A model generated the notes under the pieces. It saw only the letters and a list, made by a program, of their open reading frames with translations, was not told the DNA's origin and did not search any database. Shown piece by piece: positions 373 through 10,254 of a DNA stretch of 64,000 nucleotides (positions within the stretch are counted from its first letter, which is position 1; each line of letters opens with the position of its first letter). Made by a program: the position numbers and the translations under genes. The stretch comes from Calditrichia bacterium (GTDB taxonomy: Bacteria > Calditrichota > Calditrichia > JAJRVZ01), in NCBI GenBank assembly GCA_963765585.1, contig CAVXXB010000005.1, forward strand, positions 182,402-246,401, in the 5' to 3' direction.

Positions 373-437
373 GCAGTGTTCAAATTTGATAACATAATCC
401 TACCTTCCCGCGAAGGTGTAACGGGTTATGAATTTCA

Positions 438-590
438 GCCGGTCTCCTGACTTAAGCGTCACTCTACTCACCAGGCCTTCCCATTCTATATCTTAGAAAA
501 GTGGCCACCACAGGTTTTCGTCAGCTATTACAGTTGCGGGGCAGTGGCGGAATCTCACCGCGCTTCCCGAGCACTAAAACTCAGTCAATT
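438..590 (-). ncRNA. Cobalamin (AdoCbl/B12) riboswitch aptamer
   Basis: The reverse complement contains, in canonical order, GGGAAGCGCGGUGAGAUUCCGCCACUGCCCCGCAACUGUAA, the B12-box-like GGCCACU, GGGAAGGC, and the 3' element AAGUCAGGAGACCGGC. It lies in the 5' leader of a TonB-dependent receptor gene. Confidence 0.8.
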
Positions 591-666
591 AATTAACGCT
601 AAGTTACACGATTAAAAATAGTTTGGCAAAGGAAAATTTGATAAAAAGAAGATATCAAAGAGATTT

Positions 667-848: not shown

Positions 849-2225
849 CTATTTTAGAAGTATAGCCCGGATTATTTTTTGATGCGTCTCATTCCTGAGC
901 ACGATAAAGTAATTGCCGGATGGTAATTCTGATGCATCCCAGGATATTTGATAATTTCCGGCTTGCTGTGTTTTGTTAACCAATATTGCAACTTGCTGAC
1001 CCAGCGAATTATATACGTTTAATTCTATGTAACTTGTAATTGGTAATTTGTAATTAACTATGGTTACAGGATTAAACGGATTTGGATAGTTTTGCAGCAA
1101 TTGAAAATCTGATATTACTGCCTCTTGAATATTGTTTTGATTTTCGATCAGTGCCGCCGGACTATCCGTGGGATAAAATGTATATGCCACGCCGCCTTTA
1201 TTGAACCATGATTGTGACAGGCTGCGTTTATCATGAACATATGCATAGCCGTTAGAACGCGCCGGATCGTGGGCAATTGGATCTCCATTACTGTTAAAAC
1301 CGGCCAGCATGATAAGGTGACCCTCATATAAGGGCAGGCCGACTGACATTACTACCCGTCCCCCATTGGCCAGGACTTCCCGAGCTTCACTCCATGATAC
1401 GATAACGCGTTACTGCGCCATCAAGTCGGGCATATTCCGAGGCAAATTGCACAACACGCGGCCAGATACCAAATATATGATAATAAGGATCGTAGGTATC
1501 TTTGGCAAATTGCAATGGATCCACATCGATGTCCAGTGATCTCAGAACCATGGAAACCGAAGTGGGGGAACATATACTACCTCCGATGTCATCATCCAGG
1601 GCATATTGATAGAAAAATTCGGTGTCGACAAAAATTTCTGCTGGTTTGTCGTTTATAATCGCATCCATATCCACACTAGTGGTTGTGCGCGAATCGCTGA
1701 CAAAAAAACTGAGTTTGTGCAATGTGGGAGAAGGTTGGTCAACTTTTTCGCGACCCATGTGAATCTTAAACTGCCAGCGATTCTGATATTCATTTAACTT
1801 AACATAGTCATAATCAATCAAACCTCCGGCATAACTGGTTGGGCCATACGAATTCCAGATATAGGCTTTCCAAAATCCAACCGTGAGCCAGGGTGACCAC
1901 CCGCCATTATATGGGAAACGCATTTGAATCAAAAAACCACCATTTTCATCCGGTGCGGTTCCGTTCCAGGAGGGTAGTCCGCGGTTGAATGGTTCAGCAG
2001 ATTCAGACGATTAAGAATCATGTAACCATAAGTCTGATCGTCTGCCAATTGAAAACAACTGCTATCAGCATTGTAAATGATACCTGCACTCGATTCAATT
2101 TGAGTTTGCATGCTATCGGTATACCAGGTAAAATGCTGATCAGGATAGTTGCGGGCTGATACCGGATTAATGTATAACAACAAAAAGAAGAAAACGGCGC
2201 ACGATATTTGTAAAATATATTTCAT
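849..2225 (-). CDS. Secreted peptidase C39-like (PF13529-like) protein with T9SS C-terminal sorting domain; reading frame interrupted twice (near 1385 and 1930)
   Basis: Three consecutive minus-strand ORFs (1929-2225, 1387-1932, 849-1349) form one protein. It has a signal peptide MKYILQISCAVFFFLLLYINPVSA, then a catalytic-Cys motif GGSICSPTSVSMVL, His in EGHLIMLAGF, Asp in AHDP. The C-terminus carries the TIGR04183-like CTD LLQNYPNPFNPVTIVNYKLP... Confidence 0.5.
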
Positions 2226-2390: not shown

Positions 2391-2470
2391 AGTATCCTGG
2401 ATCCTGCATCTTGTAACTTGTATCTTGTATCTTGAATCCAGCATCCAGCATCGCTCAGCATCCTACGTAT
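2391..2470. repeat. Degenerate heptamer tandem array, family H1 (GYATCCT / GCATCCA)
   Basis: The array reads gtatcct ggatcct gcatctt gtaactt gtatctt gtatctt gaatcca gcatcca gcatcgc, with period 7 over ~70 nt. It lies between the response-regulator stop and the peptidase start, and is homologous to the arrays at 12366 and 57386. Confidence 0.6.
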
Positions 2471-3173
2471 CAAACTGGTACCCCACACTGCGGATACTTT
2501 TAATATATTTTGGATTTGCGGGATCTTTCTCAAAATATTTCCGCAGGCGTGCGATAAAATTGTCAACAGTCCGCGTCTCGATGTCAGACGAGATCCCCCA
2601 GACATTTTCAAGCAGCACTTTGCGGGACACAATCTTACCTTTATGATCCACCAGATACTTTAAAACCATGGCTTCCCGGGGGGTCAGACGAAGTTCTTCA
2701 TGTTCGCCTTTGCATTGCAGATTCTCAAAATTGATCTCATTCTTTCCGAATATATACAGTGGGAGATCAACTGTTGCTTCCCGGTACCAGGCCTTTCGCT
2801 TCAACATCCCTTTAAGCCGTAATAACAATTCCTCAAGGTTGAATGGTTTTGTTATATAGTCATCTGCACCCGATTCCAATCCCTTTATTTTATCTTCGAC
2901 CCGGGTTCTGGCGGTTAGCATTAATATAGGCATTTGAGGATTGTTGATTCGCACCTGTCTGGCTACCTCAAATCCATCAAAATGAGGCAACATCACATCG
3001 AGGATGATCAGGTCAAATACTTCATTCTGGACGGCTTCAATGGCCTGTTTACCGTCTTGCACCCAGTGAACAGTGTACCCTTCTTCTCTCAGATTGTATT
3101 CAAGGCCGACTGCCAAAGATTCTTCATCTTCAACCAGCAGAATTTTGTGTTGCTCAATATTTTTACTGCTCAT
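2463..3173 (-). CDS. Two-component response regulator, OmpR family (receiver plus winged-helix)
   Basis: The receiver domain reads LLVEDEESLAVGL...DLIILDVMLP. The C-terminal trans_reg_C domain reads RLTPREAMVLKYL...IRSVGYQFDT. It overlaps the upstream kinase gene by 11 nt. Confidence 0.9.
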   Translation of the reverse strand: MSSKNIEQHKILLVEDEESLAVGLEYNLREEGYTVHWVQDGKQAIEAVQNEVFDLIILDVMLPHFDGFEVARQVRINNPQMPILMLTARTRVEDKIKGLESGADDYITKPFNLEELLLRLKGMLKRKAWYREATVDLPLYIFGKNEINFENLQCKGEHEELRLTPREAMVLKYLVDHKGKIVSRKVLLENVWGISSDIETRTVDNFIARLRKYFEKDPANPKYIKSIRSVGYQFDT

Positions 3174-4188
3174 CGGATTCGGTCAGCTCCTTATTTCTAC
3201 GATTGGTCAGTTTTAGTAGCCTGTTTGTCAATCGTCTTTTGGACGTTTGATAAATTGGAAGTTCAATTTTAAAGGTTGTACCGCGGTCGCGTCCAGCGCT
3301 GGACACCTCAATATTCCCCCCGTGTGATTTGATGATTTCTTTCACCCAATAAAGTCCCAGACCGGTTCCTTTTACAGTAGGACTATTCGGTTTATAAATG
3401 CGCTCAAACTTTTTGAAGATCAATTTTTGATCTTTAGTATTGAGGCCAATACCCTGGTCCTGAAACTCAAGGATATACTTTTTTGAATTTTGAGAAAGGA
3501 AGACTGAAATATAAGCCTTCTCCTGAGTATATTTAATTGCATTGTCAACCAGATTATTAATAACGATTTTAATCGCACGTTTATCAATCACGATTTCACC
3601 GCTGAGCTTTCCCTTTACTTCAATCGAATCCGATCCAAGTTTAAAGGCTTTTATAGTTTCACCGAGAAGGTTTTGGATGATTTCATTGGCAGAATATACA
3701 TCAAAGTCATAGGCCAGTTTCTTTTGTTCCAGTCCCGCAATATCAAGGATCGATGAAATAAGATTATTTAGTCGTTCGGTATCCTGAAGCATCATGGAAA
3801 TAAATTCATGTTGCGTTTTTTGCGGCACATCCCGTTTTCGCAATGTCTCCAAATATAATTGAATAGAGGATAATGGTGATTTTAATTCATGGGTGACATT
3901 TGAGATGAAATTATCATAAAACCGGTTCAAATTAACCTGACGTGTAAGATAAACGAAAATAAGAGACATACCCACCGAAATCGCAATCAATAGTATGAGA
4001 CCGCTGACCAGTGCGGCGATGTGTGTATTTTGTAGAATATCTTGTGTTGAAAAGTTCTCACCCAATTCGGAGAGAAGTATATAGTTGGAGACGTACCAGT
4101 AAATCCAGAGTGTTAACAGGCTGAACCAGGCAATCTGGGCCAGGATAAACACAAAAACGTGATATATTATTAAGTTTGGTTTTCTCAT
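3163..4188 (-). CDS. Sensor histidine kinase with membrane-embedded N-terminus
   Basis: There are two to three N-terminal TM helices with only a short external loop. The HisKA phospho-acceptor reads HELKSPLSSIQLYLETL. The HATPase_c G-boxes read DQGIGL and GTGLGLYWVKEI. Confidence 0.85.
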   Translation of the reverse strand: MRKPNLIIYHVFVFILAQIAWFSLLTLWIYWYVSNYILLSELGENFSTQDILQNTHIAALVSGLILLIAISVGMSLIFVYLTRQVNLNRFYDNFISNVTHELKSPLSSIQLYLETLRKRDVPQKTQHEFISMMLQDTERLNNLISSILDIAGLEQKKLAYDFDVYSANEIIQNLLGETIKAFKLGSDSIEVKGKLSGEIVIDKRAIKIVINNLVDNAIKYTQEKAYISVFLSQNSKKYILEFQDQGIGLNTKDQKLIFKKFERIYKPNSPTVKGTGLGLYWVKEIIKSHGGNIEVSSAGRDRGTTFKIELPIYQTSKRRLTNRLLKLTNRRNKELTESDEQ

Positions 4189-4444
4189 AAATTCAGATGG
4201 TGGTGTTTATAATAGTTCAATGTTTCCATATAAGAATAAATATTTGCTGTAAATCTAATAATATGTTGTATTTAAAGACAAAGAAATCTCAATTATTACA
4301 CTTCTTTTACAAAAACGCATCTTAAATTTTCATAATATTATAAAGAATACAGAGAATCATTCGTAGGGACCACCTGCACCTCGGTGTTAGCGGCGTTTGG
4401 GTCTCCTACAAACCAAATATAAGCTGAAATAAAGGTAAAGGGAT

Positions 4445-5923
4445 ATGAAAATATTATTGGTAAATCCAATAACACCGGATACGTTCTGGAGTTTTCGCCA
4501 TGCCTTACGGTTTATATCAAAAAAATCATCAGAGCCGCCACTGGGATTACTTACTGTCGCCGCGCTTTTGCCGAATGACTGGGATCTGCAACTAGTTGAT
4601 ATGAATATCGAACCGTTACTGGATGATCAAATCACATCTGCTGATTATATATTTCTTACCGGAATGCATGTTCAAAAACAGTCTTTTATGGATGTCGTAA
4701 ACCGCAGTTATCAGCTTGGGACACCGGTTGTTGCCGGGGGGCCTATGTGCACAATGGAACGTGAATTGTTTCCGATGTTGGATTGCATGATTTTGGATGA
4801 AGCCGAATTGACGTTACCGGCCTGGTTGAAAGATCTGGAAAAAGGTAATACCAAAAAAGTATATAGTTCGGATGAATTTCCGGATATTGCCGAGTCTCCT
4901 TTACCCCGCTGGGAACTACTGGATATGAATAAATACGCCTCCATGAGTATGCAGTATTCACGTGGATGTCCCTTTAATTGTGAGTTTTGCAGTATCACAC
5001 TGCTAAATGGACACAAGCCGCGAACCAAGACCACAGATCAGTTTCTCAGCGAATTGAATGCCTTGTATCAGTCAGGGTGGCGGGGCAGAATTTTTATCGT
5101 CGATGATAATTTTATTGGCAATAAGAAAAAGTTAAAAACAGAATTACTTCCGCAACTTATTAACTGGTCGCAACAACGATCATATCCATTCCGGTTTATG
5201 ACTGAAACATCAATAAATCTGGCTGATGATGAAGTGCTGTTAGATATGATGGTCAAAGCCGGTTTTAATTCGGCTTTTATAGGTATCGAAACGCCGAATT
5301 TAGAGAGCCTGGAAGAATGTGGTAAATCACAGAATAAAGACAGAGATATGATCGGTGCAGTAAAAAAAATGCAGAAGCATGGCCTGGTGGTTTCAGGTGG
5401 ATTTATTGTTGGCTTTGATAGTGATCCGAAAAATATATTTGAACAACAAATTGGTTTTATCCAGAAGAGCGGAATTGTAACCGCAATGGTTGGATTATTA
5501 AATGCGCAGCCGGGGACCCGGTTATTCGATCGCCTGAATTCTGAAAATCGGATCATTCGCGGCTTTGATGGTGACAATATGGATGGCAAACTCAATTTTA
5601 TCCCGAGGATGACTTACGCACAGTTGAGAACAGGTTATCGCAGTATATTAGAGACTATTTATTCGCATAAAAATTATTATAAACGAGTTATAACTTTCTT
5701 ACGGGAATACCGAATACCCGTAAAGGGTTCACTGGATTTATCCAGAGACCAGATTATGGCTCTGCTGAGATCATTTTGGGTATTAGGGGTTATTGAGAAG
5801 GGAAGAAGATACTTTTGGAAATTTGTTATTTTTAGTCTGATCCGATTCCCAAATAAATTTGATCTGGCAATTACTATGGCTATTTATGGCTTGCATTTTC
5901 GACGAATTGTACACGCGGTATGA
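4445..5923 (+). CDS. B12-binding radical SAM protein (class B, DUF4070-type C-terminus)
   Basis: The N-terminus is a cobalamin-binding Rossmann-like region (MKILLVNP...LGLLTVAA...FLTGMH). The radical-SAM motif is CPFNCEFC. The total length is 492 aa. A TGA stop at 5921-5923 confirms the standard genetic code. Confidence 0.85.
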   Translation: MKILLVNPITPDTFWSFRHALRFISKKSSEPPLGLLTVAALLPNDWDLQLVDMNIEPLLDDQITSADYIFLTGMHVQKQSFMDVVNRSYQLGTPVVAGGPMCTMERELFPMLDCMILDEAELTLPAWLKDLEKGNTKKVYSSDEFPDIAESPLPRWELLDMNKYASMSMQYSRGCPFNCEFCSITLLNGHKPRTKTTDQFLSELNALYQSGWRGRIFIVDDNFIGNKKKLKTELLPQLINWSQQRSYPFRFMTETSINLADDEVLLDMMVKAGFNSAFIGIETPNLESLEECGKSQNKDRDMIGAVKKMQKHGLVVSGGFIVGFDSDPKNIFEQQIGFIQKSGIVTAMVGLLNAQPGTRLFDRLNSENRIIRGFDGDNMDGKLNFIPRMTYAQLRTGYRSILETIYSHKNYYKRVITFLREYRIPVKGSLDLSRDQIMALLRSFWVLGVIEKGRRYFWKFVIFSLIRFPNKFDLAITMAIYGLHFRRIVHAV

Positions 5924-5952
5924 AAAATAATTGATAATTATAAGGAAGAATA

Positions 5953-6972
5953 TTGGATATGGTTCAGACAAATAAAATAAAAATATCAACCAGGGACTTA
6001 AAGGAATTTTCAAAATCAGATTGGCGTAAAAGTACATGGCAGATAGTAAATTCCGTCATTCCATTTTTAATCTTGATGACAGCCATGTATTTTAGTCTGG
6101 AATATTCGTACTGGCTAACTCTGCTTTTGGCAATTCCAACCGCCGGTTTTGCAATACGTATATTTATTATTTTTCATGATTGTGGTCATGGTTCGTTTTT
6201 TAAATCAACTACAATTAGTTCAATCGTTGGCTATATAACAGGACTCCTGTTATTTGTGCCATATCATGACTGGCGTCATAGTCATGCGCAACATCATGCT
6301 ACCTGCTCCGACCTGGATCGCAGAGGCATTGGTGATGTCTGGACCCTCACAGTGAAAGAATATAAAGCATCATCCGCCAGGGATCAGTTTTTATATCGCC
6401 TGTATCGAAATCCTATAGTCCTTTTCATTTTGGGACCATTTTATATGGCCTTGATAAATAATCGCTTTCCCACCAAGGGCGCAAAAACCAGAGAAAAAAC
6501 GAGCGTGCATATGACAAATATTGGTCTATTGCTTGTCATCGTTATTATGAGTCTAACCATTGGAATTAAATCATACCTACTGATACAAATACCTGTTATT
6601 TTAATAGCCTGGACCAGCGGAATCTGGCTTTTTTATGTGCAACATCAGTTTGAAGAAGTGTATTGGGAAAATCATGAAAATTGGGATTATAATGATGCGG
6701 CATTGCTGGGGAGTTCTTTTTATAAATTGCCACGGATTTTACAATGGTTTACGGGCAATATCGGATTCCATCATGTGCATCATCTAAGTGCCCGAATCCC
6801 AAACTATAATTTGCAGAAATGTCATGAGCAAATTGGGGGTTTCCAATCGATAAAACCGCTGACATTTTTCGCCAGTCTGAAATTGCTTAAGATGCGATTG
6901 TATGATGAAGAGAGTAGATGTATGATTGATTTTAGCGGCTTTCGTGATCAACATATGGCAATGAATTCTTAG
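5953..6972 (+). CDS. Membrane fatty-acid desaturase, DesA-like (acyl-lipid desaturase family)
   Basis: The three histidine boxes are HDCGHGSF, WRHSHAQHH and HHVHH. There are four or more TM segments. It lies 29 nt downstream of the radical SAM gene. Confidence 0.85.
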   Translation: MDMVQTNKIKISTRDLKEFSKSDWRKSTWQIVNSVIPFLILMTAMYFSLEYSYWLTLLLAIPTAGFAIRIFIIFHDCGHGSFFKSTTISSIVGYITGLLLFVPYHDWRHSHAQHHATCSDLDRRGIGDVWTLTVKEYKASSARDQFLYRLYRNPIVLFILGPFYMALINNRFPTKGAKTREKTSVHMTNIGLLLVIVIMSLTIGIKSYLLIQIPVILIAWTSGIWLFYVQHQFEEVYWENHENWDYNDAALLGSSFYKLPRILQWFTGNIGFHHVHHLSARIPNYNLQKCHEQIGGFQSIKPLTFFASLKLLKMRLYDEESRCMIDFSGFRDQHMAMNS

Positions 6973-7207
6973 TGATAAAAATTGCATTTAGATTTTCAAT
7001 AATGTACATTATACACGATTTAATTAATGTACGCTGTTTTACCTGTAATCCGCTTTTGATTATAGGGCTTTTTTAAAAGGTCTTATATTCGCAAAAAATC
7101 GAGAAGAAATGGTAAACATGCCAGTCAACTCGATTTTTCTTTTGCCCGGAAGTCAGGGTAAAATCTTAGCTGTACGCGGTATTTATATTTTTTTGAGGAA
7201 TGATTTA

Positions 7208-7408
7208 ATGGAAACAGGAACTGTGAAGTGGTTCAACGGATCAAAGGGTTATGGATTCATCACCAGAGAAAATGGTGAAGATGTATTTGTTCACTACCGT
7301 TCAATTAGTGGAGAAGGCTACAAAACCCTAGAAGAAGGTGATCAAGTTCAATTCGAAGTTGCTGAAAGCCCAAAAGGATTGCAGGCTACAGATGTATCTA
7401 AGGTGTAA
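7208..7408 (+). CDS. Cold-shock protein, CspA family
   Basis: The protein reads [33 protein letters not shown] (RNP1 motif KGYGFI and RNP2 motif VFVHY). An RBS GAGGAA lies upstream. The ORF-track upstream extension was rejected. Confidence 0.9.
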
Positions 7409-7428
7409 TTGTTAGTTTTTTTACTCAA

Positions 7429-7460
7429 GCCCCGGACAGGATGTGCGGGGCTTTTTTTTT
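7429..7460 (+). terminator. Rho-independent terminator after csp
   Basis: GCCCCG gacaggatgtg CGGGGC followed by T9. Confidence 0.65.
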
Positions 7461-7500: not shown

Positions 7501-8751
7501 CTAAACTGCAATTTTATTTTGAAAATCTAAAGAGTTTATTGTCTCAACTGATTCGGCGTATTCCTGATTTAATTTATCAAATAACTCCCTGACAGAAATA
7601 ATTTCATTAACCCGGTAGGCATTTGCCCCTGCGAAGGTATATCCTTCATCCACATTACCTTTTTGCGCGTTGGTCAGTGCTTTGGCAATACAATATGGCG
7701 CCTCTCTAAAGTTACAGGTTTTTAAGCATTTCCATGGACATTGGAACGGTTTCCTGCCCCCGGCAGTGACTTCATCTATGAATTTATTACGAATTGCTCT
7801 GCCAGGCAGACCAACGGGGCTATCAATGATGGCCAGATCCTTTTCTTCGCAATCAATATATGCCTGTTTAAAATTGAGTGAAGCATCACATTCGTGGGTT
7901 GCCACAAACCGGGTGCCCATTTGTACGCCCTGTACACCTAATTCCATAATCCTATGAATATCAGCGCCTGTGTAAATTCCACCGGCAGCAATAACCGGTA
8001 TATTTTTCCCGTTTTGTATTTCAAATGGTTTTATTACCGAAAGTACATCCGGTAGTATCTGTTCAAGTGAAAAATCAGGATTAAATATTTGTTCTTTTTT
8101 AAAACCCAAATGTCCGCCGGCCTTTGGACCTTCTACCACAACAAGGTCAGGCACATGATTAAATTTCTTTTGCCAAGTCTGAAATATCAACTGGGCAGCT
8201 CTGCCGGAAGAAACAATAACCCCCACCTTTGTTACGCCACTTTTCAGACGATCCAACGTAACTGATTCGGGAAGTTTTAACGGTAAACCTGCGCCGAGGA
8301 AGATTATATCGATTTTTTCATCAAATGCAAGTGTTACCATTTCGTCGTAATCCGATATGGCAACCATGATATTTATGCCCAGCACTCCTTTTGTAAGAGA
8401 CCGTGCTTTTCGAATTTCTTCTCTAAGCAACCGCTGTGTGCTGTCCTTAAAACTTGTATTTGGATTTTCTGCCAAAAGGCCCAATGCCACCGATGATATC
8501 ACACCGATTCCACCCTCATTTGCAACAGCGGAAGCCAGGCCTGACATTGAGATTCCCACTCCCATGCCACCCTGAATAATAGGCATTTTTACAATTAGAT
8601 CATTTATTTTTAACTCGGGCATTATTTTTGTATTCATGGTCTTTATCTTTCTGATTACATGTTTTGTGAACAAATATTCAGGTACTGATGATGGCTCTTT
8701 TACTGAGGCTGAAAAAATTTTACTTTCGTATGCCTTATGCAGAGTATACAC
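7501..8751 (-). CDS. NAD(P)H-dependent flavin oxidoreductase of the nitronate monooxygenase / FabK-like (NMO) family with a Cys-rich C-terminal extension
   Basis: The FMN/TIM-barrel signature is GGMGVGISMSGLASAVANEGGIGVISS with ...GGHLG. The C-terminus carries an extra ~60 aa with FQCPWKCLKTCNF...YC. Confidence 0.75.
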   Translation of the reverse strand: MYTLHKAYESKIFSASVKEPSSVPEYLFTKHVIRKIKTMNTKIMPELKINDLIVKMPIIQGGMGVGISMSGLASAVANEGGIGVISSVALGLLAENPNTSFKDSTQRLLREEIRKARSLTKGVLGINIMVAISDYDEMVTLAFDEKIDIIFLGAGLPLKLPESVTLDRLKSGVTKVGVIVSSGRAAQLIFQTWQKKFNHVPDLVVVEGPKAGGHLGFKKEQIFNPDFSLEQILPDVLSVIKPFEIQNGKNIPVIAAGGIYTGADIHRIMELGVQGVQMGTRFVATHECDASLNFKQAYIDCEEKDLAIIDSPVGLPGRAIRNKFIDEVTAGGRKPFQCPWKCLKTCNFREAPYCIAKALTNAQKGNVDEGYTFAGANAYRVNEIISVRELFDKLNQEYAESVETINSLDFQNKIAV

Positions 8752-8906
8752 ATTCTTTAGAGCATCCGTACTAATAGAAATGTAAAAGTAATGTAATTAA
8801 AATATTTGGGTGGATTTATTTTTGGTTGGAATAAATGATGGTGATTTCTTTTAGGGGATGAGAAATTGTAATTTTATTCAGTTTCCTAACATGCACGTAT
8901 TTTGGG

Positions 8907-9380
8907 TTATGTTTCTTCCTCGCTTAGATAGACACGATAATATTTTCCATTATTATCCCGGCCAATACCATCACCTGATTTAAGCTCACCCTGGATATCA
9001 TAGAATATTATTTCTATCACAGTTCCTTTATCACCGATTATAATCCCGGTTCCGACCGGTTTGGCATCAGAGTTCTTGCCAAAGCCATATTCTTCCGCAA
9101 CCGATTTGGCTTCATTCATGAAAGTCTGATATCTGGGATCCGGTTGATATTTTTTCCCATGGATGTGATATTCCCCGTCAAATATTTCACTTTCCTGATC
9201 AACGGAGGCCTGAGGTGTGTAGATCGTTCCTTGGTTATATTTGGGTTTGGTCAGCACTAAATGGATGGTTAGACCACTGTCACGTTCATATAATCTTAAT
9301 GATTTAACGGTCGTTGGCAGACAGGATAAGTGTAGAATTAAGAAAGACAAATAAAGTAATATTGTGAGTCTATTAGTCAT
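8907..9380 (-). CDS. Hypothetical secreted protein
   Basis: The start was moved to ATG 9380 (MTNRLTILLYLSFLILHLSC, a signal peptide). The longer ORF-track start overlaps the SDR gene. No recognisable domain was found. Confidence 0.35.
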   Translation of the reverse strand: MTNRLTILLYLSFLILHLSCLPTTVKSLRLYERDSGLTIHLVLTKPKYNQGTIYTPQASVDQESEIFDGEYHIHGKKYQPDPRYQTFMNEAKSVAEEYGFGKNSDAKPVGTGIIIGDKGTVIEIIFYDIQGELKSGDGIGRDNNGKYYRVYLSEEET

Positions 9381-9468
9381 ATTTCCACGTCCTTCACGGC
9401 CATGTTCCTCGTGTTCGTCACCATGCTCTGCGTTCTCCCCACTAACTTCAGGATGGGCATTCCAGTGC

Positions 9469-10254
9469 TCAAATCCCACCTTTCCAACCCATGCGCAATA
9501 TTTTACCCGTAATTCCAGGTGCGATGGAGTTGAAGAAGAACAGGGGCCTGAGAATTTTTGGTTCAATAACAAGTTGCCTGTTTCTATTAATGGCCTTGAC
9601 GATTGCAGACGCGACTTTCTGGGGTGTTAGTGTGGGAAGATATGTATTAACTTTTGGCATCTGATCTTCGCTGCCCGGATTATGTTGCCAGTAGCTACTG
9701 GCAACCTTTCCGAATACGGCCAGAGTAACATTTATCCCTGATGGATGGGTTTCATGTTGCAAAGATTTGCTGAATGAAGCCATGGCAGCACGCGCAGCCG
9801 CGTACCCGGCTGCACCAGGCCAGACAAGAAATGATGCAGGAGAAGTCACATTTATGATATGACCGCTTCCACGATTTTGCATGTGAGGAAGCAATTCACG
9901 GGTGAGGTTAAATGCGGCAAAGTAGGGCATCATCATCATTTGTTCTAATTCAGATGCTTCTGTTTGTTCAATAGTTAGCCATCGTCCGGCACCGGCATTA
10001 TTTATCAAAATATCAGGAACTCCTAAATCAGCAATAATTTTCTGCGCGACATCAGTCACCGCAGCCGGCTGTGAGAGATCCACTGTATAATATTCTGCCT
10101 TTGCCTCCCGATTGACAGATCTCTTCTGAAATCGTTTTTAATCTTGATTCCGATCTGGCAAGCAGGATAACATGTCCTCCATTTCGACCAACTTCCCTGG
10201 CAGTTGCTTCACCCATTCCATAGGATGCACCGCTAATGAGTACTAATTTTCCAT
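9469..10254 (-). CDS. Short-chain dehydrogenase/reductase (SDR); frame interrupted near 10247 (A5 to A4 homopolymer) and near 10085
   Basis: The ORF track shows only the C-terminal 204 aa. The N-terminal Rossmann part M(E)KLVLISGASYGMGEATAREVGRNGGHVILLARSESRLKTISEE is readable upstream in shifted frames. The active-site region reads NVTSPA...YAAARAAM. Confidence 0.6.

Follow-up and report, generated by a model that had tools for sequence, protein, structure and literature searches.

A putative two-component regulon for membrane acyl-chain remodelling, centred on a B12-binding radical SAM enzyme, in a Calditrichia bacterium

In Bacillus subtilis, the membrane thermosensor DesK and its partner DesR control des, the gene for a Delta5 acyl-lipid desaturase. 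Fast post-synthetic control of membrane fluidity is understood mainly for O2-dependent desaturases of this kind (Des, DesA-D), and it is much less clear in strict anaerobes. In the present study, a locus was analysed in a 64,000-nucleotide stretch of DNA from a Calditrichia bacterium (hereafter, the window; assembly GCA_963765585.1, contig CAVXXB010000005.1, positions 182,402 to 246,401 of the forward strand), in which a histidine kinase and a response regulator are encoded divergently from a B12-binding radical S-adenosylmethionine enzyme (rSAM) and a membrane fatty-acid desaturase. The locus probably belongs to a sensor-controlled two-component regulon that remodels membrane acyl chains and has an HpnP-like B12-binding rSAM as its core target, a reading to which we assign a probability of about 55%. 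Similar to DesK-DesR, the two-component system would sense via transmembrane segments, a gene for a Delta5-Des-like desaturase lies downstream, and the proposed logic leads from an ordered membrane to more unsaturation. Dissimilar from DesK-DesR, the kinase carries the HisKA domain PF00512 and has no Pfam match to HisKA_3 (PF07730), it has two transmembrane segments whereas DesK has four to five, and its partner is an OmpR-type (Trans_reg_C) rather than a NarL/LuxR-type regulator; moreover, TTTACA direct repeats form the candidate operator, rSAM is the invariant target and a fabX-like gene the second, and the desaturase is optional. The likeness to DesK-type fluidity sensors drawn in the initial annotation therefore does not extend to homology, and DesK-DesR/des is best regarded as the closest functional analogue, not homologous in its signalling parts.

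The hopanoid C-2 methylase HpnP and HpnP-like proteins have a B12-binding/radical SAM/DUF4070 architecture (PMC10697835). The same three domains make up the window rSAM, and the carbon that HpnP modifies is an unactivated one in a membrane lipid; however, the HpnP, HpnR and HpnJ models do not recognise the window protein (for HpnP, no match was listed in the NCBIfam search), and the rSAM family forms a tight cluster of its own. Hopanoid genes were not seen in any rSAM neighbourhood, and the family is common in lineages that, to our knowledge, are not known for hopanoids. Archaeal B12-binding rSAMs add methyl groups and rings to lipid tails and desaturate them anaerobically (Garcia et al., bioRxiv 10.1101/2025.10.20.683597). 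These enzymes, namely the glycerol dialkyl glycerol tetraether methylases, the GrsA/B ring synthases and the desaturase Ted, are class B rSAMs that work on inert membrane-lipid tails without O2, and the methylation is stress-induced; however, their substrates are isoprenoid, no two-component system dedicated to their control has been described, and the likeness to the window rSAM is drawn from their described activities. The enzymes encoded at the locus have their closest relatives in HpnP-like rSAMs, in FabX, an enzyme of unsaturated fatty acid synthesis, and in Bacillus-type Des (442 bits against a cutoff of 500).

Domains in the window proteins were called with Pfam, and the curated equivalog cutoffs were those of NCBIfam. 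The response regulator (positions 2463-3173, minus strand) is of the OmpR/PhoB family, with a receiver domain (Response_reg) and a winged helix (Trans_reg_C), and it scored below the cutoff of every NCBIfam equivalog. The histidine kinase (3163-4188, minus strand; 341 amino acids) contains HisKA (56.8 bits) and HATPase_c. On the plus strand, the rSAM gene (4445-5923; 492 amino acids; Radical_SAM 47 bits, DUF4070 126 bits, and B12-binding PF02310 36.2 bits against a cutoff of 32.1) is followed by the accessory desaturase gene (5959-6972; FA_desaturase 115 bits, three His boxes), and a terminator-like hairpin with a T-run, found by consensus scan only, marks the 3' end of the rSAM-desaturase operon (7042-7066, plus strand). 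A CspA-family cold-shock gene, csp, lies beyond the hairpin (7208-7408, plus strand; 66 amino acids; a single CSD domain, 97 bits). The initial annotation had described these five genes, and all were found with the domains stated; it had overlooked the convergent gene on the minus strand, which encodes a 378-amino-acid FabX/UfaA-like protein, that is, a putative flavin mononucleotide (FMN)/[4Fe-4S] acyl-ACP (acyl carrier protein) dehydrogenase-isomerase (7501-8637), and is the second operator target. The previously given distance of 29 nt between rSAM and the desaturase holds if the desaturase begins at the alternative TTG (5953), but becomes 35 nt with the better-placed ATG (5959); a consensus scan found no terminator in this gap. 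Likewise, the CSD domain of the cold-shock protein was confirmed, but the coding sequence spans 7208-7408, as called in relatives, and not 7109-7408.

Conservation of the locus was assessed by genome and metagenome scans, the listed loci of which carry an rSAM 52-64% identical to that of the window, while closer relatives were reached via exact-protein look-ups; all these loci are given L numbers. In all, 18 distinct contexts, spread over five or more phylum-level labels, have the kinase and regulator divergently next to rSAM, although these labels are those on the records of metagenome-assembled genomes (MAGs) and perhaps unreliable, and many loci are mutually related, such that the counts are not counts of independent events. 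The contexts include the window, an Aminicenantes bin (L001), Marinimicrobia (L003/L004), Spirochaetota (L006/L022/L065), L086, L098 and close relatives of the window, and the labels on their records include Calditrichota-like, KSB1, Marinimicrobia, Spirochaetota, Aminicenantes and Bacteroidota. A reverse search gave the same arrangement: three kinase orthologues (54-56% identity; L175-L177), picked since their contigs were not already among the known loci, all had a DUF4070 rSAM as divergent neighbour, and at least 17 more kinase matches lie on contigs equal in size to contigs with rSAM matches. The invariant unit is thus the two-component system plus rSAM. One of the contexts from the reverse search (L176) additionally carries, immediately behind the regulator gene, a gene for a Blc-like Lipocalin_2 protein (7834-8388), a further membrane-related neighbour.

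The pairing of rSAM with the desaturase is more restricted. It was conserved in six of the seven contexts of the close clade (66-100% rSAM identity), which the names on homologues suggest to be Calditrichota-like, but it is not a conserved unit farther out: only one of the 160 listed loci with 52-64% rSAM identity has a desaturase downstream of rSAM, a Desulfobacterales MAG (L080) whose rSAM and desaturase are 54% and 47% identical to those of the window and whose gene order is RNA-recognition-motif (RRM) gene, rSAM, desaturase. Besides this locus, the desaturase follows rSAM in the window, L081, L082, L084, L166 and L168, that is, in 6 of the 18 two-component contexts. The divergent block of regulator and kinase, then rSAM and desaturase, is present in L081 (82% rSAM identity), L166 (67%, also with csp) and L168 (66%), and together with csp in L082 (79%) and L084 (72%); in L165 (69%), csp follows rSAM without a desaturase. 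In the window, L166 and L168, rSAM and the desaturase are 22-44 nt apart. Flanking genes differ among L081, L082, L084, L165, L166 and L168, and because the block is retained amid unrelated flanks in relatives, it is more than a chance arrangement. Altogether, these data indicate that the rSAM-desaturase pairing is a real, selected arrangement in one clade, but not the core of the system.

When the intergenic regions between kinase and rSAM were aligned, a direct repeat, TTTACA-N5-TTTACA, emerged, which has an 11-bp period and the consensus TTTACAWTWSTTTTACA (TTTACA-WTWST-TTTACA). The box is present in 17 of the 18 two-component contexts, exactly in 15 and with one mismatch in L065 and in the window, where it reads ATTACActtctTTTACA (operator 1; 4295-4311, plus strand). 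L176 has no exact copy, its sequence not having been scanned with mismatches. No exact copies were found in 154 loci without the two-component system or fabX, and with up to one mismatch allowed the background was 16 matches in 1.53 Mb. A -10-like hexamer, TAATAT (4333-4338, plus strand), lies 21 nt downstream of the proximal repeat in the window, and a TAnAnT hexamer starts 22 nt past the proximal repeat (a 21-nt spacer) in 14 of 14 listed rSAM promoters; the transcription start that this placement would predict implies a 5' untranslated region (UTR) of about 100 nt for rSAM. Hexamer-N5-hexamer direct repeats are the usual sites of OmpR/PhoB-family regulators, and because such repeats typify the family, we infer that the adjacent regulator binds the TTTACA repeats.

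The window holds exactly one further box, ATTACAttactTTTACA (operator 2; 8781-8797, minus strand), which is oriented towards the fabX-like gene, has the same A-for-T change as operator 1 and fits the extended consensus. A third, degenerate repeat, TATTAGT (8776-8770, minus strand), follows it upstream of the fabX-like gene, and 21 nt after that repeat stands an extended -10 element, TGTGTATACT, of the candidate fabX-like promoter (8752-8743, minus strand). Orthologues of the fabX-like gene at 74-78% identity occur on other contigs, away from the two-component system, and exact boxes, often as a triple repeat, were found 90-150 nt upstream of these unlinked genes (L170, L171/L172, L173/L174); the TGTGTATACT motif recurs in the promoters of L170 and L171, and L173 has a TGTATAAT-type -10. 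We take as decisive for the place of fabX in the regulon that unlinked orthologues keep the box. These data support a putative regulon of rSAM, with or without the desaturase, and fabX, in which two of the three enzymes are predicted to make unsaturated acyl chains, and the view that the module is conserved and concerns membrane lipids, already put forward for the window, gains from the common operator, which appears to tie the rSAM-desaturase operon to the FabX-like gene.

A regulatory RNA was also considered for the rSAM leader and rejected: a GC-rich stretch (4363-4410) is not conserved, its fold is no better than that of shuffled sequences (z = -0.36), and a permissive Rfam search gave no match in the leader. 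This 48-nt segment (plus strand) is itself an oddity, as it stands in an otherwise AT-rich leader, is unique in the window and is missing in relatives, of which L081 has an unrelated hairpin at that place.

Unsaturated fatty acids receive their cis double bond from FabX in Helicobacter pylori and from UfaA in Neisseria, where the reaction is anaerobic (PMC8626469; PMC11300592); what accepts the electrons of FabX/UfaA under anaerobic conditions has not been identified (PMC11300592). The [4Fe-4S] ligands of H. pylori FabX are C300/304/308/320, and its catalytic residue is His182 (Zhou et al., PMC8626469). The best PDB sequence matches of the window protein were H. pylori FabX structures (7e1q, 9lt5, 9jsy), with 235.6 bits to 7e1q over the full length at 42% identity. 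Similar to FabX (HP0773) and UfaA (N. gonorrhoeae NGO1024), the window protein has four cysteines, C301/305/309/317, that align to the cluster ligands of FabX, and the histidine of its GPKAGGHLGFK motif aligns to the catalytic His182; however, its cysteines are spaced C-x3-C-x3-C-x7-C, whereas the last gap in FabX is x11, and no two-component regulation has been described for FabX in the literature searched (PMC8626469; PMC11300592). The Pfam assignment of the gene is nitronate monooxygenase (NMO), and an identity as the enoyl-ACP reductase FabK was rejected, FabX being far closer (105 bits to FabK 7l00; 138.6 bits against a cutoff of 453 for the FabK model TIGR03151). The start codon of the gene was set to the ATG at 8637, in line with relatives and the alignment; the GTG at 8751, which falls within the extended -10 element, was rejected. 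The fabX-like gene probably acts in unsaturated fatty acid synthesis, as a putative FabX. At one locus with an Aminicenantes label (L001, 2620-5238), a fabX orthologue (50% identical) stands between the box and rSAM in one operon; direct cooperation of the two proteins there, for example with the surface [4Fe-4S] cluster of FabX exchanging electrons with rSAM, would be speculative. Apart from this, about 3 kb downstream of one unlinked fabX (L173, 12236-14547), genes for an RRM protein, a LapA_dom protein and a B12-binding rSAM (484 amino acids, no DUF4070 match) were seen, so that here, too, a cold-shock-type gene stands beside a B12-binding rSAM.

The desaturase, for its part, has the His boxes HDCGH, HDWRH/HAQHH and HHVHH, and its closest curated family is the Bacillus Delta5 DesA (NF052548; 441.7 bits against a cutoff of 500, model positions 3-326 of 328).

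The kinase had been described as almost entirely membrane-embedded, which was not borne out: about 85 of its 341 residues form two transmembrane helices and a loop of about 20 amino acids, and the rest is a normal dimerisation/phosphotransfer and catalytic (DHp/CA) core. By Pfam and hydropathy, the hydrophobic segments lie at about residues 4-31 and 51-85, and the second helix is followed directly by HisKA, with the phospho-acceptor H100, and by HATPase. Pfam gave no match to a HAMP or PAS domain, and the transmembrane hairpin is the only input region. The protein thereby has the features of the intramembrane-sensing class (two transmembrane segments, a loop of less than 25-30 amino acids and no other input domain), and these are conserved in 15 orthologues, whose alignment has W28, I29, G63, L66, G73 and F78 invariant in the hairpin, as well as H100.

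The CxxxCxxC motif of rSAM (CPFNCEFC, residues 175-182) is invariant in 51 rSAM sequences, in which C292 is the only other invariant cysteine; because no further cysteines are invariant, an auxiliary cluster is unlikely, and the enzyme is not a methylthiotransferase. An AlphaFold2 model of rSAM had a mean pLDDT of 90.6, and a fold search of the PDB with it returned AprD4, MgmA, TsrM, OxsB, CysS and TokK, then MiaB and RimO; the predicted fold is that of a generic class B enzyme and is uninformative on the substrate. The best 120 matches to rSAM were all at least 60% identical and about 492 amino acids long, and the family as a whole is 52-82% identical across phyla, with listed matches of 52-64% identity in Dehalococcoidia, Desulfobacterota (including Desulfobacterales), Bacillota, Bacteroidales, Nitrospirota, Spirochaetota and others. 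Among its cultured carriers are Draconibacterium mangrovi, D. sediminis and Anaerobacterium chartisolvens (L068, L074, L030). Clustering at 50% reduced the family to one representative (622 bits); the next cluster scored 511 bits, and other DUF4070 rSAMs follow it in a continuum (1544 clusters at E <= 1e-30). The enzyme is not of the BchE or HpnJ clades, from which the initial annotation had asked that it be separated (profile scores of 61.2 against a cutoff of 481 for BchE, TIGR02026, and 61.5 against 577.6 for HpnJ). The protein is claimed by no curated family and scores about equally low against all of them. Membership of PhpK (71 against 600), HpnR (42.1 against 650) and the ladderane rSAM (56 against 360) was likewise rejected at scores far below the cutoffs, as was membership of MiaB/RimO (TIGR00089, 27.7 against 251; no invariant N-terminal cysteine and no TRAM match). 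A literature search found no paper on this DUF4070 rSAM family, its two-component system, its operator or the rSAM-desaturase pairing. Methylation and desaturation are about equally likely as the reaction of rSAM, and sequence does not separate them.

Neighbours of rSAM in other lineages were examined by clustering genes within 4 kb across 166 loci and checking representatives by Pfam, and the counts given here are of genes within 3 kb. A fatty-acid theme was apparent, mainly in Dehalococcoidia, with ACP at 12 loci, a FabG-like short-chain dehydrogenase/reductase at 9, DegV at 7 and a FabK/NMO-family protein at 5. Cold-shock-type genes also recurred: csp in the window clade, L058 and L073; glycine-rich RRM genes in L059, L061, L080, L113, L138, L144, L162 and L175; and DEAD-box helicase genes in L040, L061, L113, L124 and L138. 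L061 has the order DEAD-box gene, rSAM, RRM gene with a 15-nt gap, and in L138 and L144 the RRM gene is 136 nt upstream. By a rough estimate, Csp, RRM and DEAD-box genes account for a few tenths of a percent of the genes in a genome; against this, more than 12 occurrences in about 170 loci are a clear enrichment, although the loci are phylogenetically non-independent. Band 7/SPFH genes were counted in 5 Desulfobacterota-type loci, and HflK/C-like pairs of them were seen upstream of rSAM in L046, L048, L055, L064, L077 and others.

Because a two-helix transmembrane hairpin is its sole input, the kinase most likely reads a physical property of the bilayer, the likeliest signal being a loss of fluidity as the temperature falls. 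The kinase would in turn transfer phosphate to the OmpR-type regulator, which in its phosphorylated form would activate the rSAM-desaturase promoter and the promoter of the convergent fabX-like gene via the TTTACA repeats. During de novo synthesis, the FabX-like enzyme would shunt a mid-chain acyl-ACP, which in H. pylori is decanoyl-ACP and becomes cis-3-decenoyl-ACP, towards unsaturated products; phospholipid chains already in place would be unsaturated by the Delta5-Des-like desaturase if O2 is present, and rSAM would modify unactivated acyl-chain carbons without O2, either by C-methylation, as in HpnP, or by desaturation, as in archaeal Ted; either reaction would fluidise the membrane. The csp gene would be a separately transcribed cold-shock companion.

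Several points weigh against this reading. The signal of the kinase, the DNA binding of the regulator and the substrate of rSAM are all read from sequence, and cobalamin use by rSAM is predicted from a marginal Pfam score; AprD4, which has the same domain and is the closest solved fold, is not known to use B12. No transmembrane segment was predicted in rSAM. The Dehalococcoidia cluster of ACP, FabG and DegV genes is convergent to rSAM and not operonic with it, and it may reflect the synteny of one lineage. The oxygen needs of the proposed parts are mixed, as H. pylori FabX and the desaturase need O2, and rSAMs are generally O2-labile. Furthermore, the Csp, RRM and DEAD-box neighbours would equally fit a cold enzyme directed at RNA or the ribosome.

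The last point leads to an alternative that we consider unlikely, in which rSAM serves in the cold-shock response by modifying RNA or a component of the ribosome, and the link to the desaturase and FabX reflects common cold regulation only. DEAD-box, RRM and Csp genes adjoin rSAM in several phyla (L061, L144, L138, L040, L058, L073, L175), the fold search also gave MiaB and RimO, and the rimO-crhR operon of Synechocystis offers a precedent; however, rSAM is without the N-terminal three-cysteine cluster and the TRAM domain that are hallmarks of methylthiotransferases, we know of no B12/DUF4070 rSAM that acts on RNA, the dedicated kinase has a membrane hairpin as its sole input, and both other regulon targets are lipid enzymes. 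Somewhat less probable still is a sequential pathway, in which the desaturase or FabX makes a cis double bond and rSAM methylates there, yielding a mid-chain methyl-branched or unusual fatty acid. This is essentially the idea of the initial annotation, which took the pairing to signify a joint, unusual acyl modification. The tight co-operonic arrangement of rSAM with the desaturase (gaps of 22-44 nt, as given above) and of fabX with rSAM in L001 would suit it, class B rSAMs are mostly C-methylases, and the family occurs in Dehalococcoidia, Desulfobacterales and Nitrospirota, groups known for 10- or 11-methyl-C16 fatty acids. On the other hand, the desaturase is missing from 12 of the 18 two-component contexts and from nearly all other rSAM loci, which shows that it is not an obligatory partner, and the methylation of an olefin needs no radical chemistry, as SAM methyltransferases of the Cfa/BfaB type perform it. 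Because the desaturase is dispensable, a parallel role, with two or three independent fluidising routes, fits better than an obligatory two-step pathway.

It is improbable, in our judgement, that the two-component system is Pho-like or a general envelope-stress system and that rSAM acts on a non-lipid substrate, for example by P- or C-methylation of a small molecule. The best NCBIfam matches do point that way, being PnpS/PhoR for the kinase, PhoB for the regulator and the P-methyltransferase PhpK for rSAM, and the TTTACA box resembles the B. subtilis PhoP box, TT(A/T/C)ACA-N5. Firmicutes two-transmembrane kinases of similar type sense envelope stress. In archaea, amphiphiles induce the methylation of lipids (bioRxiv 10.1101/2025.10.20.683597), which would also be in keeping with an envelope-stress signal. 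Nevertheless, the scores are far below the cutoffs (PhoR 159.8 against 334, Bacteroidota PhoR 113 against 500, PhoB 197 against 296, PhpK 71 against 600), the kinase is without a PAS domain, no pst or pho genes were seen in the 18 two-component contexts, and the putative regulon members that can be identified serve unsaturated fatty acid synthesis, with csp next to them; on the sub-cutoff scores and the lack of a PAS domain, PhoBR was rejected as the identity of the system. We give the least credence to the notion that the adjacency of rSAM and desaturase is lineage-specific synteny without functional coupling. The pairing is indeed limited to one clade (66-100% rSAM identity) and one distant locus, but the block is kept while its flanks change completely (L081, L084, L166, L168), the pairing recurs in L080, and the desaturase lies inside an operator-preceded operon, before a terminator-like hairpin.

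Within the proposed acyl-chain regulon, a bolder but doubtful possibility is that rSAM is the first bacterial O2-independent acyl-lipid desaturase, Ted-like in its reaction, which would form an aerobic/anaerobic pair with the di-iron desaturase and be switched on by a hitherto unrecognised family of intramembrane kinases that sense fluidity and occur under at least five phylum-level labels. The Mg-protoporphyrin cyclase provides a precedent for such isoenzymes, an aerobic di-iron one (AcsF) and an anaerobic B12-binding rSAM (BchE), and the desaturase and rSAM of the window could, purely hypothetically, form an oxygen-regime pair of this kind, although the window rSAM is not an orthologue of BchE (61 bits against 481). 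If so, strict anaerobes with rSAM only (Dehalococcoidia, Desulfobacterales, Clostridia) would adjust their membrane fluidity rapidly with rSAM. The module supplies candidates for an enzyme, its sensor and the DNA site involved. In the literature searched, FabX-type unsaturated fatty acid synthesis was nowhere described as transcriptionally controlled, and the putative regulon proposes such control. If rSAM makes methyl-branched or unsaturated chains, this could also affect how such lipids are read as biomarkers of anoxic sediments. As sensor-controlled lipid unsaturation, the module would be of a known kind, with a real chance of a new bacterial enzyme activity.

The csp gene adjoins the module in L082, L084, L165 and L166. 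With a 5' UTR of about 130 nt and a GC hairpin and T-run at its 3' side (about 7425-7455), it looks like a transcription unit of its own, separate from rSAM-desaturase. Its leader and coding sequence gave a sub-threshold match to the Rfam cspA thermoregulator (7063-7457, plus strand; 32.5 bits against a gathering threshold of 78, E = 6.5e-6).

On the other side of the module, the B12 riboswitch and importer that had been placed 4 kb upstream are in part as described: a cobalamin riboswitch is present (420-593, minus strand; 96.8 bits), but it lies 3.85 kb from the rSAM start and on the opposite strand. It precedes the N-terminus of a TonB-dependent receptor (signal peptide, CarboxypepD_reg-type), which is cut by the left edge of the window; riboswitch and receptor together span 1-593 on the minus strand. 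A 738-amino-acid TonB receptor occupies the same place in L081-L083, and it is not beside the module in L084 and L165-L169; the riboswitch and receptor were therefore rejected as parts of the module, their position being synteny in the nearest relatives L081-L083 only.

Two neighbouring genes appear to be disrupted. The gene for a C39-like peptidase sorted by the type IX secretion system (849-2225, minus strand) is broken near 1398 and 2008 into three segments (frames -1, -3, -1), and it is one intact gene of 457-458 amino acids in L081 and L082; in the window, either it is a pseudogene or two sequencing errors have shifted its frame. A short-chain dehydrogenase open reading frame (ORF; 9469-10083, minus strand) covers Pfam model positions 56-187 only, is N-terminally truncated and overlaps a 221-amino-acid ORF without a Pfam match (8907-9572, minus strand), and it may be another disrupted gene, just past the fabX promoter.

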